A stretch of DNA of 64,000 nt, taken from assembly GCF_057098645.1 (NCBI RefSeq), contig NZ_CM169472.1; one strand, given 5' to 3'. The position numbers and the translations under genes were made by a program. This document shows, piece by piece, positions 9,190-60,945 of the stretch. The first letter of the stretch is position 1, and every line of letters starts with the position of its first letter. A model generated the notes under the pieces. The model saw nothing but the letters and a program-made list of their open reading frames with translations, was not told the DNA's origin and ran no database searches.

Positions 9190-9276
9190 TGGTGCGAGGG
9201 GGGGGACTTGAACCCCCACGTCCGTAAGGACACTAACACCTGAAGCTAGCGCGTCTACCAATTCCGCCACCTTCGC
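9190..9276 (-). tRNA. leuV: tRNA-Leu (CAG)
   Basis: 87-nt sequence whose reverse complement is GCGAAGGTGGCGGAATTGGTAGACGCGCTAGCTTCAGGTGTTAGTGTCCTTACGGACGTGGGGGTTCAAGTCCCCCCCCTCGCACCA. Confidence 0.95.
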
Positions 9277-9310
9277 ACAGTCATCTTACTTTTTTTGATA
9301 TCGCCTCGTT

Positions 9311-9397
9311 TGGTGCGAGGGGGGGGACTTGAACCCCCACGTCCGTAAGAACACTAACACCTGAAGCTAGCGCGTCTACCAATTCCGCCACCTTCGC
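9311..9397 (-). tRNA. leuP: tRNA-Leu (CAG), middle copy with one base change in the variable arm
   Basis: Same 87-nt tRNA except gtaagaacact versus gtaaggacact on the plus strand. Confidence 0.93.
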
Positions 9398-9425
9398 CCA
9401 GTGCGAGCAATATCAACGTGGTTTT

Positions 9426-9512
9426 TGGTGCGAGGGGGGGGACTTGAACCCCCACGTCCGTAAGGACACTAACACCTGAAGCTAGCGCGTCTACCAATTC
9501 CGCCACCTTCGC
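9426..9512 (-). tRNA. leuQ: tRNA-Leu (CAG)
   Basis: Third tandem copy, identical to the first. Confidence 0.95.
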
Positions 9513-9629: not shown

Positions 9630-9800
<171 letters not shown>

Positions 9801-11789: not shown

Positions 11790-12467
11790 ATGAAGTGGGA
11801 CTGGATTTTCTTTGATGCCGATGAAACGCTGTTTACCTTTGACTCATTCACCGGCCTGCAGCGGATGTTTCTTGATTACAGCGTCAACTTTACCGCTGAA
11901 GATTTTCAGGACTATCAGGCCGTTAACAAGCCACTGTGGGTGGATTATCAAAACGGCGCGATCACTTCATTACAGCTTCAGCACGGGCGTTTCGAGAGCT
12001 GGGCCGAACGGCTGAAAGTTGAAGCAGGCTTGCTTAACGATGCCTTTATTAATGCGATGGCGGAAATCTGTACGCCGTTGCCGGGCGCGGTTTCTCTGCT
12101 TAACGCCATTCGTGGCAACGCTAAAATCGGCATCATCACCAACGGTTTTAGCGCCTTGCAGCAAGTGCGTCTGGAACGGACGGGCCTGCGTGATTACTTC
12201 GATTTGCTGGTGATTTCCGAAGAAGTTGGCGTTGCCAAACCGAATAAGAAAATTTTCGATTATGCGCTGGAACAGGCGGGCAATCCTGACCGTTCACGCG
12301 TGCTGATGGTTGGCGACACTGCCGAGTCCGATATTCTCGGTGGCATCAACGCCGGGCTTGCGACCTGCTGGCTGAATGCGCACAATCGCGAGCAACCAGA
12401 AGGCATCGCGCCCACCTGGACCGTTTCTTCGTTGCACGAACTGGAGCAGCTCCTGTGTAAACACTGA
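11790..12467 (+). CDS. yjjG: HAD-family pyrimidine 5'-nucleotidase YjjG
   Basis: 225-aa ORF with the HAD motif FFDADETLF near the N-terminus. Confidence 0.9.
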
Positions 12468-12557
12468 TTGCCTCCCCCCCGTTGATGGGTAAAATAGCCG
12501 CAATTTTTCGTTTTCAACAAGCGCGGCGCGATGCCGCTTACTCAAGAAGAAAGAATT

Positions 12558-12622
12558 ATGACGTTGTCTCCTTATTTGCAAGAGGTGGCGAAGCGCCGCA
12601 CTTTTGCCATTATTTCTCACCC
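12558..12622 (+). pseudogene. prfC: Native 5' end of prfC ([22 protein letters not shown]...) cut off by prophage integration
   Basis: atgacgttgtctccttatttgcaagaggtggcgaagcgccgcacttttgccattatttctcaccc encodes the canonical PrfC N-terminus, then reading diverges into phage DNA at 12623. Confidence 0.8.
12609..12622. other. attL core (attatttctcaccc), identical 14-bp copy at attR
   Basis: Exact 14-bp identity with 55730..55743; chromosomal sequence on the left, phage sequence on the right. Confidence 0.7.
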
Positions 12623-12786
12623 CAATAATTAAGCCCAAATTAAAGCTCTTTTACTCTTTCAAAGTCCTTTCAGTTAATTGAGTGTTAATCATATAACTCA
12701 TTTAATAACATGATGTTATGTGGTTTCTTTAATTGAAAATTCTTTCATGTAACTTTAAATCGATCAGGTTGCTTTCATCAAAAATC

Positions 12787-12843
12787 TGTACATGTGCTTG
12801 TACATAATGTACAAAACAGCAGAGGTGGTTTTTTATTTGTACA
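12787..12843. promoter_or_regulatory. Cluster of four TGTACA motifs directly upstream of int; candidate integrase arm-type or repressor binding sites
   Basis: TGTACA at 12787, 12799, 12808 and 12838; TTGTACATAAT recurs at the attR side (55656). Confidence 0.4.
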
Positions 12844-12852
12844 AGGTGAGTA

Positions 12853-14091
12853 ATGGCGCTGTCTGATGCGTGGTTGCGTTCAGTCGTTGGAAAGGAACGT
12901 GATAAGGTTTTGGTTAAATCCGATCGTGATGGTCTGTCTGTCAGAGTATCACCGAAAGGTCGCGTAGTGTTCCAATATCGTTATCAATGGGCAGGGAAAG
13001 GTGAGCGCCTTGATATCGGAACTTACCCGGCAACTGGATTAAAAGAGGCCAGAGAAGAAGTTATCCGTCTCCGTGGTGAACTCGAGTCAAACCGCAATCC
13101 ACGATTAGTCAAGCAGGCTGAAAAACGAAAAGCTACTGAAGCTATGACGGTAGAGTCTGTGATCCGTGCCTGGTATGAAGCATATTGTGTAAAAAATAAA
13201 AAAGGTTCTGAACAGATACTCCGCTCGTTTGAGCTGCACCTGTTCTCTAAAATCGGGAATATCCCTCACGATGCAGCTACATTGCATGATTGGTTAGAAG
13301 TCCTGGAGCCTCTTAGCACTAAGACTCCAGCAATAGCAGACCGATTGCTAATTAACGCAAAGCAGGCCCATGTCTGGGCGTATAAGAGAAAGCTCATTGA
13401 AACTCGCCCGCTGTCGGATATCACGGGTAAAGATATGGATATCCGTAAAGGTCAGAAGAAACGGTTTCTGACACATGATGAAATTAAAATCCTTTATGCT
13501 GCGATCGATGGTTCTCGAATGGTTCCCAAATACCGGGCCTTCATTAAACTATTGCTGCATTTCGGCTGTCGTAGTTCAGAGCTGATTACTGCCAGGGTGG
13601 ATGATTTTGATTTCATTAATAAGGTATGGACTGTACCGCCAGAACGACATAAGACAGGTGATATAACAGGCGAACCGCTAAAGCGCCCCATTATTGAACC
13701 GGTTGAAGAGCTTATAAAATACGTTATCTCTATGAACAACGGTTCCGATATGCTTTTTACCAAGGAAGGAAGCAAGGAGCCAGTTGGTCGGACATCATTG
13801 CAGTCGCTGCCTTACAATTTAATGCAGTACGCATGGCGGCGTTTGGGGTATCAATTTCCTCATTGGTCTCTTCATGATTTGAGACGAACAGCACGAACAA
13901 ACTTTTCTGATCTTACTGCGCCTCATATTGCTGAAATAATGCTCGGTCATAAACTGCCAGGGGTATGGCAAGTTTATGATAAGAGCGATTATCTAGAAGA
14001 ACAGCGTAAAGCCTATCAGGCATGGTGGGATAGGGTTGATTCGATTCTTACTTACACTAATTTAGGTTCCAACAGACAGCCTATTGAATAA
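12853..14091 (+). CDS. int: Phage tyrosine integrase (P4-type, N-terminal arm-binding DUF4102-like domain)
   Basis: 412 aa; catalytic signature HDLRRTARTN ... LGHK ... VYDKSDY; adjacent to attL. Confidence 0.9.
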   Translation: MALSDAWLRSVVGKERDKVLVKSDRDGLSVRVSPKGRVVFQYRYQWAGKGERLDIGTYPATGLKEAREEVIRLRGELESNRNPRLVKQAEKRKATEAMTVESVIRAWYEAYCVKNKKGSEQILRSFELHLFSKIGNIPHDAATLHDWLEVLEPLSTKTPAIADRLLINAKQAHVWAYKRKLIETRPLSDITGKDMDIRKGQKKRFLTHDEIKILYAAIDGSRMVPKYRAFIKLLLHFGCRSSELITARVDDFDFINKVWTVPPERHKTGDITGEPLKRPIIEPVEELIKYVISMNNGSDMLFTKEGSKEPVGRTSLQSLPYNLMQYAWRRLGYQFPHWSLHDLRRTARTNFSDLTAPHIAEIMLGHKLPGVWQVYDKSDYLEEQRKAYQAWWDRVDSILTYTNLGSNRQPIE

Positions 14092-14243: not shown

Positions 14244-15851
14244 TTATGGCTGAGACTCTGGTTTAGCAATCTCGTTTATAAATTTCTTAGCTACAACAGT
14301 CTCATACTTTCTATAATCATCAAGATATTGAACATCTATATGATTTTCGTAGCGAGCATTAAATTTATTTGCAGCCCCTGTTTTATCATCTTTACGTTCA
14401 TCCGTTGGTCTGAAAAATTTATGGTAGCGGCGGGGTGATACCCCCTCAAAATCACAAAATATTACTTTGGAAGATTCTTCGTTCTTTGTTATTGCATCAT
14501 TATGCAGATCAAGAGCAAGACTTTTATCAAATGGCTCTATATATACTACTTTTTTTATTCCAGCTGCGACAATATGCCTTGCACAGTTGTGGCAGGGATA
14601 GGTTGTCGTAAAAAGAATTTTATCTTTAGTATCGCCGTTTTGTTTTCTAGCCATTGATGTAATGACGTCCATTTCAGCATGAATTGATCTGGAGTACTCC
14701 ATTACACTTGATATTTTGCTGTCTTTGTAAATGCCTTCTGCAATATTATCTAATTTGTTTAGAAGTCGTGTTATATTAATATCGGCAACAGTTTGTCCTG
14801 CGGAAATACCTAATACAGTTCTTACTTCGGTTGATAATATGCTTTTTATACGGTCTTTAATTTTTAGCTTGTTTGCATCATTATAACACTTACCACTTTT
14901 GTGAACGCATCGATGATCGTTATCAAAATCATCACTGCTATACAACCCGCCACCAGCTTTAGGTACGTCGTTCTTACCCACGGCAAGCAAATTCCCTTCA
15001 TCATCAAACAGTGCAGCCCCTACTTGACGTGATAAACAAGCTGATTGTAATGATGTTGAAAAGGCAGCATACATACCTTTCTCGTTAAAAGTTGGTGTTA
15101 AACCATTTTTGCCATGAATAAGACCGAAAAACCGATCAATCTTCTTCTTTAATTCACTTTTTTGGCTGAAGTTATTTTTAATAAAAAAATCTGAATCAAG
15201 AATGGTTTCCCCGGTTCTTTGTCCATACGGATCAGAGGATTTATTATCAATATTGATAATTAAATGAAGGTCGTTCTTTGTCGATTCGTCATCAATGAGA
15301 TTCTGAATTCGGTAATCTAAATCGCGCAAAACTCCTAACAAATAGAAATTATGCTGATATATAACTCTGAATAACTCTATTTCTTCCGGCCTTTTGAATT
15401 GATCAATGATGAAGACAGTACCTTTATATTCATCATTATTATAATCATTATTATAATCAATATTATTTTTCTCTGCTGCGATTGCTGCAATAGCAGCTTC
15501 TGCAAGCAACTCATTTTTTTTGTAATGTTTACGAAGTTTATTGGCAATATCCTGGAGTTTTAAATGTCTATTAGCTTGTGTGCTTTCGGATACCTTCAGT
15601 GCTGCTGGCTCAAAATATAATGGGTTTTCCATAAGCGCACTTATGCGGATGTGTACAACATTATACCCCCATTCTTTGGATATCTCTTCGATAATTTTGT
15701 TTATCGTTCTCATGCCACATCCAACATATCCACACAATCCAAGATAAATATCTTTTGATTGTCGTGAATTCACAATCTCAAGTGATGATGCCGATGTTGA
15801 GCCTTTTTTTTCATTCAGCTTTTGTGGAGTTTTTTTTGCTGCTTCAGCCAT
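14244..15851 (-). CDS. AvcD-like / dCTP-deaminase-family defense protein: N-terminal degenerate P-loop NTPase (kinase-like) fused to a C-terminal dCMP/cytidine-deaminase (CDA-fold) domain
   Basis: 535 aa; degenerate Walker A LGLCGYVGCGMRT (aa 38-49); deaminase zinc motifs HAEMDVI (aa 391) and PCHNCARH (aa 419-426); AT-rich cargo between int and xis. Confidence 0.7.
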   Translation of the reverse strand: MAEAAKKTPQKLNEKKGSTSASSLEIVNSRQSKDIYLGLCGYVGCGMRTINKIIEEISKEWGYNVVHIRISALMENPLYFEPAALKVSESTQANRHLKLQDIANKLRKHYKKNELLAEAAIAAIAAEKNNIDYNNDYNNDEYKGTVFIIDQFKRPEEIELFRVIYQHNFYLLGVLRDLDYRIQNLIDDESTKNDLHLIINIDNKSSDPYGQRTGETILDSDFFIKNNFSQKSELKKKIDRFFGLIHGKNGLTPTFNEKGMYAAFSTSLQSACLSRQVGAALFDDEGNLLAVGKNDVPKAGGGLYSSDDFDNDHRCVHKSGKCYNDANKLKIKDRIKSILSTEVRTVLGISAGQTVADINITRLLNKLDNIAEGIYKDSKISSVMEYSRSIHAEMDVITSMARKQNGDTKDKILFTTTYPCHNCARHIVAAGIKKVVYIEPFDKSLALDLHNDAITKNEESSKVIFCDFEGVSPRRYHKFFRPTDERKDDKTGAANKFNARYENHIDVQYLDDYRKYETVVAKKFINEIAKPESQP

Positions 15852-16391: not shown

Positions 16392-16586
16392 TCATTCAAT
16401 AACTCCTGCAAACCTGTAAATCTTGCGTGAAGCCCATTTATTTGGGCATGATTTAATATCAGGATCTGGAAAATCAGGCCTGTACTTCTGGCCAGTTCTC
16501 CGGTTTACGCTGTTCCAGCGAAGAACTGTCGATACTGAAACGCCACAGAAGTCGGCGACTTGTTTAGTTGTCATTAAGTTGTTCAT
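16392..16586 (-). CDS. xis: Excisionase / AlpA-family HTH DNA-binding protein
   Basis: 64 aa; MTTKQVADFCGVSVSTVLRW HTH, then the proline-rich FPDP segment typical of AlpA/Xis. Confidence 0.65.
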   Translation of the reverse strand: MNNLMTTKQVADFCGVSVSTVLRWNSVNRRTGQKYRPDFPDPDIKSCPNKWASRKIYRFAGVIE

Positions 16587-20141: not shown

Positions 20142-20816
20142 TTAGGCCTTTATTATGTATCTTCTTGGTTTTCCTGAGAAAATCACTGTACCAATTATAG
20201 AGCAATTACCGTTGATCTTAATGTAAGGTTCAGGCCAGTTTGGGTTTAATGCTTTGAGGTAACGCTGTGTTCCATCTTCTATCAACCGCTTGAAGGTGGT
20301 TTCGCCTGTATCGTGCATCAATGCAATAACGTCGTCACCGTGGCAGGCAGGGACTTCAGGATCAACAAAAATCATGTCTCCCGGGCGGTACTCATCAATC
20401 ATTGAATCACCAATCACCCGCAAGATATAAGTCATTTCGCCACAGGGTACAGGGCAGGGGTAAGTTTCTGCTGTGCTCAAATCAACCTCAGAATAGCCAA
20501 CTTCTTTCCATGCTCCGGCCTGTACCCATGATATGACAGGGACTAACGTTATTTGTTTGTTAGTGATTGAAACATCAGGTTTTTTTGTGATGTTCGTGGT
20601 CTGGTGTTCTTGATCAAGCCATCCGACAGGCAGGTCGAAACATTTTTCGATGTGCCGCGCCATGCTGTCACCGATATTTTTAGTAGCACCATCTCCCATA
20701 AACCTGCTGGTCTGGGTTGGCTCGCGATCAATCATGGTGGCAAAGGAAGAATTCCCGCCAACACCATCTCTCAGTTTTCTGGCGTTAGACCGCCGGATGT
20801 CATGGACTGTTTTCAT
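20142..20816 (-). CDS. cI: CI-like prophage repressor (HTH plus LexA-like S24 peptidase domain)
   Basis: 224 aa; C-terminal S24 region with GDSM motif (VIGDSMIDEYRPGDMIFVDPE); divergent from a cro-like gene. Confidence 0.85.
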   Translation of the reverse strand: MKTVHDIRRSNARKLRDGVGGNSSFATMIDREPTQTSRFMGDGATKNIGDSMARHIEKCFDLPVGWLDQEHQTTNITKKPDVSITNKQITLVPVISWVQAGAWKEVGYSEVDLSTAETYPCPVPCGEMTYILRVIGDSMIDEYRPGDMIFVDPEVPACHGDDVIALMHDTGETTFKRLIEDGTQRYLKALNPNWPEPYIKINGNCSIIGTVIFSGKPRRYIIKA

Positions 20817-21702: not shown

Positions 21703-22535
21703 ACAGTTTAACGGCAAATAACCGTTTGTCGCAACAGCTGGTGGTCAGCGTCGCTGAACACCTGTTGTTACGGCATGAATGCAGATTACCAAATCACCTG
21801 GCTGTAAGTAACCACAGAGAACTTTACCTGACTGTGGGGGGCGAGTTGTGCAGGAACTTAACCGCTGGTTTCGTGACGGAAGAGGGCTTTATGTCCATGT
21901 TATTCGTTGGGAGCCAGAAACACAGCGCGTTATCTATCTTCGCAAAGACTACCCGCATGAGTGCTTTAGTCCTTTGTGGAAATTCAGGCGTGATTTTGTT
22001 GAGTGTGAAGGACCACCAGCACATTGATTCTGCCATTCCGGGACGTTACACTGTTCAGGCACCTTATAAAGCGGGTGCCGGGATTGGCGTCCTGGAAATG
22101 TTATCGGCGATATATGACGCGCCAGCGTCTTTTTTATCGTCTGCGTCTGTGCACACCCAAATTATGGTGGGCTGGACGGGGGCACCGAAAGGTGCGCCGG
22201 TTTCCGATAACGCCGGTTACGCCAACCCCGTTCAGTTCACCACCAGCGAAATTGGCGTTTCCGGTGGTGAAGGTAATTCACTGTTATCGGAGGCTGCCAT
22301 CATGGCTACTGTCCCAGCCCTCACTCGTCTGAATGATGAAGACTTACATAAACTCAGTTATGTAACAACTGCACTACGTGCTCTGCGCAAGGTAACTCTT
22401 TCGGATCCGCAGGCGCATCAAGTTCTGGTAGAAACCCTTCTTAACTTGCAGGCTGAACGTATTCGTCTGGCGGATAAGGCTAATTTTCATATTCACCGTC
22501 TCCTGAATATCAGCGGAGGGCATCGTCATGCTTAA
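21699..22535 (+). CDS. Hypothetical phage protein (replication-module position)
   Basis: 278-aa ORF translationally coupled between the CII-like and O-like genes; no motif recognised. Confidence 0.5.
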   Translation: MNSLTANNRLSQQLVVSVAEHLLLRHECRLPNHLAVSNHRELYLTVGGELCRNLTAGFVTEEGFMSMLFVGSQKHSALSIFAKTTRMSALVLCGNSGVILLSVKDHQHIDSAIPGRYTVQAPYKAGAGIGVLEMLSAIYDAPASFLSSASVHTQIMVGWTGAPKGAPVSDNAGYANPVQFTTSEIGVSGGEGNSLLSEAAIMATVPALTRLNDEDLHKLSYVTTALRALRKVTLSDPQAHQVLVETLLNLQAERIRLADKANFHIHRLLNISGGHRHA

Positions 22536-53755: not shown

Positions 53756-54336
53756 TGGCATTCAGAATGAGTGAACAACCACGGACCATAAAAATTTATA
53801 ATCTGCTGGCCGGAACTAATGAATTTATTGGTGAAGGTGACGCATATATTCCGCCTCATACAGGTCTGCCTGTAAACAGTACCTATATTGCACCGCCAGA
53901 TATTCCGGCTGGTTTCGTGGCTGTTTTCAACAGTGATGAGTCATCGTGGCATCTCGTTGAAGATCATCGGGGTAAAACGGTTTATGACGTGGCTTCCGGC
54001 GACGCGTTATTTATTTCTGAACTCGGTCCGTTACCGGAAAATGTTACCTGGTTATCGCCGGAAGGGGAGTTTCAGAAGTGGAACGGCACAGCCTGGTTGA
54101 AGGATACGGAAGCAGAAAAACTGTTCCGGATCCGGGAGGCGGAAGAAACAAAAAACAACCTGATGCAGGTAGCCAGTGAGCATATTGCGCCGCTTCAGGA
54201 TGCTGCAGATCTGGAAATTGCAACGGAGGAAGAAATCTCGTTGCTGGAAGCATGGAAAAAGTATCGGGTATTGCTGAACCGTGTTGATACATCAACTGCA
54301 CCTGATATTGAGTGGCCAGCAGCACCTGTAGGATAA
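53755..54336 (+). CDS. tfa: Tail fiber assembly protein (Tfa)
   Basis: 193 aa following and coupled to stf; C-terminal ...[23 protein letters not shown]... Confidence 0.85.
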
Positions 54337-55095: not shown

Positions 55096-55213
55096 ATCTT
55101 TTCGTGATATGCCGCAGAAACGTTGTATGCAGGAACGTGCTGCGGCTAACTGGTGAACTTTCGATAGTGCGGGTATTGAATGATTTCCAGCCGTTACCGA
55201 TTTTACGTGCTAA

Positions 55214-55462
55214 TTAGTGAACAAACCACTCGTCAGCAGACTCCCAGGTATCTTTCAGAGTTTCCTGAACAAAAGTTTTAGCTGAATCTTTATCGGCAGT
55301 GCGCGTAACAGAAAGGCCATCGTTGCTGGTGGTTTTTACGATCACCTCTACATCGTCATAACGCTTACTGATGCGTCGAGTTAATTCTTCCTTTAACGCA
55401 TCCACAGCACCGTTTGGCATTTTAGTCATTTTCTCTTTGGCTATGCAGATCTCAATACGCAT
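55214..55462 (-). CDS. DinI-like protein (SOS-regulated RecA modulator family)
   Basis: 82 aa, [11 protein letters not shown]...[16 protein letters not shown] closely parallels chromosomal DinI. Confidence 0.85.
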
Positions 55463-55477
55463 AAAAATCCCTCTACA

Positions 55478-55521
55478 CTGTGTTTGTATACAGTATTATT
55501 TTTAACTGTATGAATAAACAG
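55478..55521. promoter_or_regulatory. Two tandem LexA boxes (CTGT-N8-ACAG) in the dinI-like promoter
   Basis: CTGTgtttgtatACAG at 55478..55493 and CTGTatgaataaACAG at 55506..55521, directly upstream of the minus-strand dinI-like start. Confidence 0.8.
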
Positions 55522-55546
55522 TGTCAATAGAACAAAGATTGCTGCA

Positions 55547-55662
55547 TGTACAAATGTTCTTTGGCTACAAATACACCTACTGATCATGTTCTGCTATGCT
55601 CTGATACCTCCAAAATGTACAATCAGCGGCATGAATTTTTCTTTGTACATATGATTGTACAT
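55547..55662. promoter_or_regulatory. TGTACA motif cluster on the attR arm / phage-supplied prfC promoter region
   Basis: TGTACA at 55547, 55616, 55644 and 55657; mirrors the cluster at attL. Confidence 0.4.
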
Positions 55663-55681
55663 AATCAAAGAGACAACAATT

Positions 55682-57268
55682 ATGACAAGCCTTTTGGCCG
55701 CAGAGGTAGCGAAAAGAAGAACCTTTGCAATTATTTCTCACCCGGACGCCGGTAAGACTACCATCACCGAGAAGGTGCTGCTGTTCGGACAGGCCATTCA
55801 GACTGCCGGTACAGTAAAAGGCCGTGGTTCCAACCAGCACGCTAAGTCGGACTGGATGGAGATGGAAAAGCAGCGTGGGATCTCCATTACTACGTCTGTG
55901 ATGCAGTTTCCGTATCACGATTGCCTGGTTAACCTGCTCGACACCCCGGGGCACGAAGACTTCTCGGAAGATACCTACCGTACCCTGACGGCGGTGGACT
56001 GCTGCCTGATGGTTATCGACGCCGCAAAAGGTGTTGAAGATCGTACCCGTAAGCTGATGGAAGTTACCCGTCTGCGCGACACGCCGATCCTCACCTTTAT
56101 GAACAAACTTGACCGTGATATCCGCGACCCGATGGAATTGCTCGATGAAGTTGAGAACGAGCTGAAAATTGGCTGCGCACCGATCACCTGGCCAATTGGC
56201 TGCGGCAAGCTGTTTAAAGGCGTTTACCACCTTTATAAAGATGAAACCTATCTCTATCAGAGCGGTAAAGGGCACACCATTCAGGAAGTCCGCATTGTTA
56301 AAGGGCTGAATAACCCGGATCTCGATGCTGCGGTTGGTGAAGATCTGGCACAGCAGCTGCGTGACGAACTGGAACTGGTTAAAGGCGCGTCTAACGAGTT
56401 CGACAAAGAGCTGTTCCTTGCGGGCGAAATCACTCCGGTATTCTTCGGTACTGCGCTGGGTAACTTCGGCGTTGATCATATGCTGGATGGCCTGGTGGAG
56501 TGGGCGCCTGCGCCGATGCCGCGTCAGACCGATACCCGTACCGTAGAAGCGAGCGAAGATAAATTTACCGGCTTCGTATTTAAAATTCAGGCCAACATGG
56601 ACCCGAAACACCGCGACCGCGTGGCGTTTATGCGTGTGGTGTCCGGTAAATATGAAAAAGGCATGAAACTGCGCCAGGTGCGCACTGCGAAAGATGTGGT
56701 GATCTCCGACGCGCTGACCTTTATGGCGGGTGACCGTTCGCACGTTGAAGAAGCGTATCCGGGCGATATCCTCGGCCTGCACAACCACGGCACCATTCAG
56801 ATCGGCGACACCTTTACCCAGGGTGAGATGATGAAGTTCACCGGTATTCCGAACTTCGCACCAGAACTGTTCCGTCGTATCCGCCTGAAAGATCCGCTGA
56901 AGCAAAAACAGCTGCTCAAAGGGCTGGTACAGCTTTCCGAAGAGGGCGCGGTGCAGGTGTTCCGTCCAATCTCCAACAACGATCTGATCGTTGGTGCAGT
57001 TGGTGTGCTGCAGTTTGATGTGGTGGTAGCGCGCCTGAAGAGCGAATACAACGTTGAAGCAGTGTATGAGTCAGTCAACGTTGCCACTGCCCGCTGGGTA
57101 GAATGTGCAGACGCGAAGAAATTCGAAGAGTTCAAGCGTAAGAACGAAAGCCAACTGGCGCTTGATGGCGGCGATAACCTCGCTTACATCGCTACCAGCA
57201 TGGTCAACCTGCGCCTGGCACAGGAACGTTATCCGGACGTTCAGTTCCACCAGACCCGCGAGCATTAA
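55682..57268 (+). CDS. prfC: Peptide chain release factor 3 with a phage-supplied replacement N-terminus
   Basis: Translational GTPase with G1 motif [12 protein letters not shown]; N-terminus [16 protein letters not shown]... replaces native [17 protein letters not shown]... Confidence 0.9.
55730..55743. other. attR core (attatttctcaccc)
   Basis: Exact copy of 12609..12622; phage sequence on the left, native prfC on the right. Confidence 0.7.
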
Positions 57269-60528: not shown

Positions 60529-60945
60529 TTTGCCCTTCGTAGGCAGCATCCGGCAGTCGGCGCATAATGCCTGATGCGACGCTTAACGCGTCTTATCATG
60601 CCTACAGGTTTGTGCCGAACCGTAGGCCGGATAAGGCGTTCACGCCGCATCCGGCAGTTGGCGCACAATGCCTGATGCGACGCTTGTCGCGTCTTATCAT
60701 GCCTACAAGTCTGTGCCGAACCGTAGGCCGGATAAGGCGTTCACGCCGCATCCGGCAGTCGGCGCATAATGCCTGATGCGACGCTTGTCGCGTCTTATCA
60801 TGCCTACAGGTTTGTGCCGAACCGTAGGCCGGATAAGGCGTTCACGCCGCATCCGGCAGTTGGCGCACAATGCCTGATGCGACGCTTGACGCGTCTTATC
60901 AGGCCTACAAGTCTGTGCCGAACCGTAGGCCGTATCCGGCATGTC
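60529..60945. repeat. Tandem REP/BIME array (four ~100-bp units)
   Basis: Four repeats of ...gcctgatgcgacgctt(g/a)(t/a)cgcgtcttatcatgcctaca(g/a)g(t)ttgtgccgaaccgtaggccggataaggcgttcacgccgcatccggcagt(c/t)ggcgca(t/c)aat... Confidence 0.85.

Follow-up and report, generated by a model that had tools for sequence, protein, structure and literature searches.

A cdtI-type lambdoid prophage in Escherichia coli prfC that carries a replacement start for the gene

Results

A split prfC flanks a lambdoid prophage

The 64-kb stretch of DNA analysed here (the window) holds a lambdoid prophage of 43.1 kb (12623-55743) within the 5' end of prfC. The features that define the two junctions are as follows.

11790-12467, plus strand: yjjG, pyrimidine 5'-nucleotidase gene, the host gene upstream of prfC (open reading frame; PGAP annotation of the matching region)
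12468-12557, plus strand: putative native prfC promoter and leader (90 nt), cut off from the gene (consensus scan; identical to empty-site genomes)
12468-12495, plus strand: promoter-like TTGCCT-16-TAAAAT (consensus scan)
12558-12632, plus strand: native prfC 5' stub, 24 codons
12609-12622, plus strand: attL core ATTATTTCTCACCC, codons I18-P22 of RF3
55682-55729, plus strand: phage-borne surrogate prfC 5' end, 16 codons (contiguous with int in free phage genomes)
55730-55743, plus strand: attR core ATTATTTCTCACCC
55682-57268, plus strand: hybrid prfC, 528 aa plus a stop codon at 57266-57268

A preliminary description of this DNA had placed the native PrfC N-terminus at 12558-12622, where it breaks into phage DNA, and the translation agrees: the stub has 22 native PrfC codons followed by two phage codons and a stop. 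The equivalent of this stub in a sister genome is labelled an incomplete pseudogene by PGAP. Translation of the open reading frames likewise confirmed that the full-length gene at 55682-57268 opens with a phage-encoded N-terminus, its 5' portion being phage DNA. The exact 14-bp core reported at both junctions, ATTATTTCTCACCC, has only those two copies in the window, and a control of 100 shuffles gave an expectation of none by chance. It marks the insertion point, prfC codons 18-22 in the segment AIISHP, where the P-loop of the RF3 GTPase begins.

The same description held that about the first ten residues of PrfC are altered. The protein is indeed altered, but to a smaller extent, of about six residues: LSPYLQ at positions 3-8 is exchanged for the five residues SLLAA, so that hybrid PrfC is one residue shorter than the native protein. 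Residues 1-2 (MT) and everything from E9 onwards have the same protein sequence in both. At the DNA level, nine bases over the start codon, AATTATGAC (the upstream AATT and the first five coding bases), are common to the surrogate and the native gene.

The prophage appears complete and carries a dCTP deaminase beside int

Between the two junctions we identified genes for integration, excision, repression and lysis, as well as structural genes, and the prophage looks complete.

12853-14091, plus strand: integrase, tyrosine recombinase, 412 aa (Pfam Arm-DNA-bind_3, PF13356; Phage_int_M, PF22022; Phage_integrase, PF00589; phrog_1)
14244-15851, minus strand: anti-phage dCTP deaminase, cargo (NCBIfam NF041025, 464.7 bits against a cut-off of 400)
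16392-16586, minus strand: excisionase, Xis (phrog_1553, E 7.9e-35)
20142-20816, minus strand: CI-like / LexA-family prophage repressor (phrog_4, E 1.3e-48; "LexA family protein" in the sister genome)
26460-54336, plus strand: late region with Q antiterminator, DNA methyltransferase, lysis genes, terminase and portal (homology and annotation) and, further within it, a protease-capsid fusion, tape measure, J, Lom, tail fibre and tail fibre assembly
55214-55462, minus strand: DinI-like gene, the last phage gene, divergent from hybrid prfC (NCBIfam NF007893; phrog_189)

The slot between int and xis, occupied here by the dCTP deaminase, holds an AIPR-family protein in otherwise similar prophages of other E. 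coli genomes and thus looks like a swappable position for defence cargo. At the opposite end, we found no cdtABC open reading frames in the roughly 880 bp between 54336 and 55214, an interval in which no open reading frame exceeds 65 aa.

Several RNA and repeat families were also matched. Rfam models placed an isrK Hfq-binding RNA (22059-22135, plus strand) and a C4 antisense RNA (22160-22247, plus strand) in the prophage early region, and the IS009 sRNA model (223.6 bits; 54098-54296, plus strand) matched within the tail fibre assembly gene, in its 3' part. The host DNA contains three tandem tRNA-Leu(CAG) genes (9190-9512, minus strand) and matches to naRNA4 (REP-type) repeats at 9652-9734 and 60625-60905.

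Both att arms are rich in a short repeat

The hexamer TGTACA occurs 16 times in the window, and eight of these copies fall within the 640 bp flanking the core, in both att arms.

12787-12843: P' arm, four TGTACA repeats (12787, 12799, 12808, 12838), just upstream of int (motif scan)
55547-55661: P arm, four TGTACA repeats (55547, 55616, 55644, 55656; motif scan)

The last two repeats of the P arm, 12 nt from each other, precede the surrogate ATG by 38 and 26 nt. The attP of R997, an SXT/R391 element, and several IMG/VR lineages show the same layout of paired repeats before the start codon. The TGTACA repeats are most likely arm-type sites for the N-terminal domain of the integrase. Read from the sequence, a perfect inverted repeat, AATTATT (55729-55735) and AATAATT (12624-12630), flanks the attP core. 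These would probably be the core-type sites, in which case strand exchange would fall within TCTCACCC.

Surrogate starts recur across an integrase clade

The window module combines a tyrosine recombinase with N-terminal arm-binding, central and catalytic domains, the AIISHP site of prfC, and a frame-restoring surrogate in attP. Its integrase shares 98% identity with the phage cdtI enzyme and, over 99% of its length (E 2e-75), 38% with the enzyme of R997. The integrases of cdt phages and SXT elements have been placed in one cluster that targets prfC (Smyshlyaev 2021, PMC8138268). Relatives in Salmonella (84% identity), Xenorhabdus (64%), Pseudomonas (52%), Vibrio diabolicus (51%) and Acidovorax (51%) are all encoded just after a prfC stub whose last residues are AIISHP.

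A degenerate scan of IMG/VR recovered at least six further lineages with different element-borne N-termini (for example, MSNEINRRR, MNEKFINEINDRR, MSNQEFLNEINRRR and MNDYLNSIQAKETKRRR), usually with two GTACA repeats ahead of them. Landing in prfC with a surrogate start is a general strategy of this integrase clade. Not every member sits at prfC, however: a relative in Pantoea agglomerans (56% identical), considered as a prfC-site member, was rejected since it has no prfC or GTPase stub upstream and adjoins fimbrial genes; a GTACAT-type repeat still lies ahead of its int. Upstream of int in Moraxella phage Mcat16 (41% identical integrase) we found no GTPase surrogate.

At one end of a 47.6-kb IMG/VR contig (IMGVR_UViG_3300038708_000015), non-prfC DNA adjoins an SXT-type surrogate, MANQDFLNEINKRR, accompanied by TGTACAAAT repeats; the other end has MNNFINEINKRR and full prfC. 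The contig could hold two elements at prfC, in tandem or nested.

Transcription of hybrid prfC would start in phage DNA

The preliminary description had made prfC expression dependent on a phage-supplied promoter and leader. The dependence on phage DNA follows from the geometry of the locus: dinI is divergent and the native promoter stays behind at attL, so transcription of the hybrid must begin in phage DNA. The promoter itself is a prediction, and would lie within the 220 bp between dinI and the ATG.

A consensus scan of 55150-55800, together with reading by eye, did not find a strong sigma-70 promoter on the plus strand upstream of the hybrid ATG. The sole plus-strand match of the scan, TCTACA-16-TATTAT (55472-55499, 9/12), overlaps one of two LexA-box-like sites.

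55478-55493 and 55506-55521: well-formed LexA-box-like sites CTGT-N8-ACAG (CTGTGTTTGTATACAG and CTGTATGAATAAACAG), between dinI and hybrid prfC

The other site overlaps a leftward promoter-like sequence of dinI, TTGACA-18-AAAAAT. Two further candidates were set aside: TTGTAC/CATAAT within the arm repeats, whose elements are only 11 nt apart, and TATGCT-17-TACAAT, which scores only 8/12. The Shine-Dalgarno sequence of hybrid prfC is weak.

At the other junction, the plus strand carries the promoter-like site of host prfC, the stub and int, the last of these 220 nt downstream of the stub. Neither a terminator between stub and int nor a promoter of int's own was predicted in 12468-12853. Speculatively, int in the lysogen may be read from the host prfC promoter, and in the free phage it might be read from the surrogate side. 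We therefore raise, tentatively and with only a modest chance of its being right, the idea that the att site acts as a promoter swap, handing a phage promoter to prfC and placing int behind the host prfC promoter. In the free phage, the promoter driving the surrogate would then read through the core into int; it could be the LexA-box-overlapped match at 55472-55499 or lie within the arm sites 26-38 nt before the ATG. Such a swap would wire RF3 expression in about 12% of E. coli genomes to the SOS response or to integrase occupancy, and would make int expression dependent on the integration state.

The surrogate is conserved as a coding sequence

In the nine codons before the core (EVAKRRTFA), host and phage differ at 8 of 27 bases (GTG/GTA, AAG/AAA, CGC/AGA twice, ACT/ACC and GCC/GCA), and all eight differences are synonymous. 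When eight random substitutions were introduced, the peptide was left intact once in 2 million trials (P about 5e-7). Divergence restricted to synonymous sites indicates that the surrogate is under selection as a coding sequence. Among E. coli phages the surrogate is nearly invariant: in an exact-core scan of IMG/VR nearly all hits were E. coli attL copies, apart from three attR, and the surrogate showed essentially no change. The argument for selection consequently rests on the host-phage comparison and on other lineages, and in place of the within-family variation that the exact-core scan lacked we used that comparison and a relaxed IMG/VR pattern.

These data bear on whether integration simply knocks out prfC, leaving a frame that is intact on paper but unexpressed, its promoter and ribosome-binding site lost. 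[quoted passage not shown] The loss would also be tolerated, because RF3 is dispensable. The preliminary description had assigned prfC to an essential pathway, but the gene is not essential: delta-prfC strains of E. coli are viable and in routine use (PMC2791158), and Ogura 2007 agrees (PMC2323221). A silent gene does not, however, account for eight of eight synonymous differences in nine codons or for the retained AATTATGAC over the start codon, and many independent element lineages keep an in-frame ATG and surrogate, as does a relative that targets lepA. SXT hybrids, moreover, are reported to be functional: passages of two papers that cite Hochhut and Waldor 1999 state that SXT/R391 integration restores a functional hybrid prfC (PMC7251087, PMC12210918). 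We consider a knock-out unlikely and infer that the hybrid protein works as RF3.

The surrogate might instead be a passive leftover of host DNA, captured by imprecise excision in an earlier host so recently that its frame is intact by coincidence. Captured DNA would, like the surrogate, encode a peptide identical to the host's next to the core, and the first residues of the surrogate resemble natural RF3 N-termini elsewhere (for example, MTKQAAEV in Pseudomonas). Yet 30% DNA divergence over the 27 bases before the core without a single amino-acid change calls for long purifying selection, and elements with integrases of only 38-52% identity show the same solution. A passive origin is thus very unlikely, and the selection on the surrogate, together with the kept start-codon bases, argues against host scrap as it does against a dead hybrid.

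The empty site and attP are found intact in other genomes

We reconstructed attB (12223-12622 joined to 55744-56143) and found it contiguous in 4,717 of 5,426 complete E. coli genomes; in one it is 100% identical and annotated as yjjG-prfC. The empty-site genomes carry the native N-terminus, not MTSLLAAEV, and the 14-bp core is present in the reconstructed empty site. The reconstructed attP (55343-55743 joined to 12623-13022) is contiguous in the free phages cdtI (99.4%), 2H10 (97.4%) and Ayreon (97.2%), and in the cdtI record it lies between the dinI gene and the integrase gene. With both sites reconstructed and matched, the initial view is borne out: a prophage interrupts the 5' end of prfC and itself provides the gene with a new one. 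These matches show that the prophage entered prfC by site-specific recombination at the 14-bp core common to attP and attB.

The same attR, consisting of the dinI-like gene and hybrid prfC, is present in 665 of the 5,426 complete E. coli genomes (about 12%, at a query coverage of at least 80%), and genomes with the identical junction have prfC annotated as intact by PGAP. The attL junction was found in dozens of IMG/VR contigs. That the split gene is an artefact of assembly or rearrangement rather than of site-specific integration has practically no chance of being correct, and is already contradicted by the identical attR in 665 independent complete genomes, the attL contigs, the attP in sequenced free phages and the core that is exact at both ends.

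Discussion

We conclude with high confidence that a complete cdtI-type lambdoid prophage occupies prfC, with the native start left behind as a stub and a phage surrogate fused in frame to the rest of the gene. The tyrosine integrase recombined the 14-bp core of attP with its copy in prfC codons 18-22. The attP side away from int brings a start codon and 16 codons in imitation of the beginning of prfC; upon integration, the native 5' end becomes a dead stub at attL and the surrogate is joined in frame to the remainder of prfC at attR. The phage would thereby gain a target that is near-universal and highly conserved, and whose use would not harm the host.

The arrangement has practical value for genome annotation: prfC begins with phage DNA, and a 24-codon stub lies at least 43 kb upstream, in about one in eight complete E. 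coli genomes. Pipelines or pangenome studies can miscount such a gene as a disrupted core gene. By the present analysis, the inclusion of prfC among prophage-disrupted genes in the survey of Bobay 2013 looks like an over-call of this kind. More broadly, a mobile element here lands on the most conserved codons of a universal gene and repays the damage with a surrogate start. Should the replaced promoter change RF3 regulation, many lysogens of Shiga-toxin and cdt phages would be among those concerned.

The arrangement is already known from Stx1 phages, phage cdtI and SXT/R391 elements. Exactly this organization was described for an Stx1 phage by Ogura 2007 (PMC2323221), and prfC is a recurrent site of Stx1a and Stx2c phages (PMC10132054). 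The Stx1/Stx2c prophages at prfC in E. coli O103:H2, O165/O172 (CC119) and O145:H28 have integrases 95-97% identical to that of the window and the same att. Unlike them, the window prophage lacks stx and has the dCTP deaminase as cargo beside int. Another close match is phage cdtI (NC_009514 / AB285204), which shares the attP region (99.4% over 801 bp), the dinI gene beside attP and the lambdoid gene order, but carries cdtA, cdtB and cdtC just before dinI. The element in the window is a cdtI-type lambdoid phage without the cdt toxin genes.

SXT/R391 elements also integrate at the 5' end of prfC (PMC2786100, PMC2791158). As their representative we used R997 from the plasmid collection; none of the integrase homologues listed was named IntSXT. 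SXT, R391 and R997 share with the window the same prfC codons, a surrogate-bearing attP and a homologous integrase with the same three domains. In the R997 attP, two TGTACAAA repeats 12 nt apart are followed after about 24 nt by the ATG and surrogate N-terminus; it reads TGTGTACAAATCCGTGTACAAAC, 17 nt and the surrogate peptide, the same architecture as in the window. However, these elements are conjugative and not phages, their integrase has diverged to the 38% identity given above, and the int of R997 faces the core, whereas that of the window points away from it, on the same strand as the stub. For their core a length of 17 bp is reported (PMC7251087), whereas the identity in the window extends over 14 bp. 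The family is defined by an integrase near-identical to IntSXT (PMC2791158), which the window integrase is not, and instead of the tra, setCD and setR backbone the window prophage carries terminase, portal, capsid, tape measure, J, tail fibres and lysis genes.

The core in the R997 record (NZ_KY433363) reads GCT ATC ATC ATT ATT TCC CAC CC, or AIIIISHP, and is thus longer by one ATCATC or ATTATT. The ATCATC of Vibrio type and the ATTATT of E. coli type both seem to have been retained, and this may be a real hybrid core or a result of circularisation of the record.

Klebsiella phage Kpn_R1 (PQ800145, 1255-1302) extends the comparison to a second gene. Its integrase, a sister of that of the window, is 46% identical to it, and its attP has a start codon and MKNIRNFSIIAHID, the beginning of LepA as far as the P-loop position that is homologous with the prfC core; in 5,421 genomes the start of E. 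coli lepA matches this stretch at 88%. As in the window, two direct arm repeats lie just upstream, with the repeat TGTCCA instead of TGTACA, but the target of Kpn_R1 and its relatives is lepA, a paralogous GTPase gene. This suggests that the integrase clade has moved between the paralogous translational GTPase genes prfC and lepA, each time with homologous P-loop codons as the target and with a matching surrogate start.

A looser parallel is offered by phage 21 and e14 at icd, which, in the account given in a passage of PMC3603311, likewise enter a conserved coding gene and keep its reading frame with a phage copy of the displaced end. There the 3' end is replaced and the host promoter and start are kept, whereas in the window the 5' end, the start codon and the promoter are replaced.
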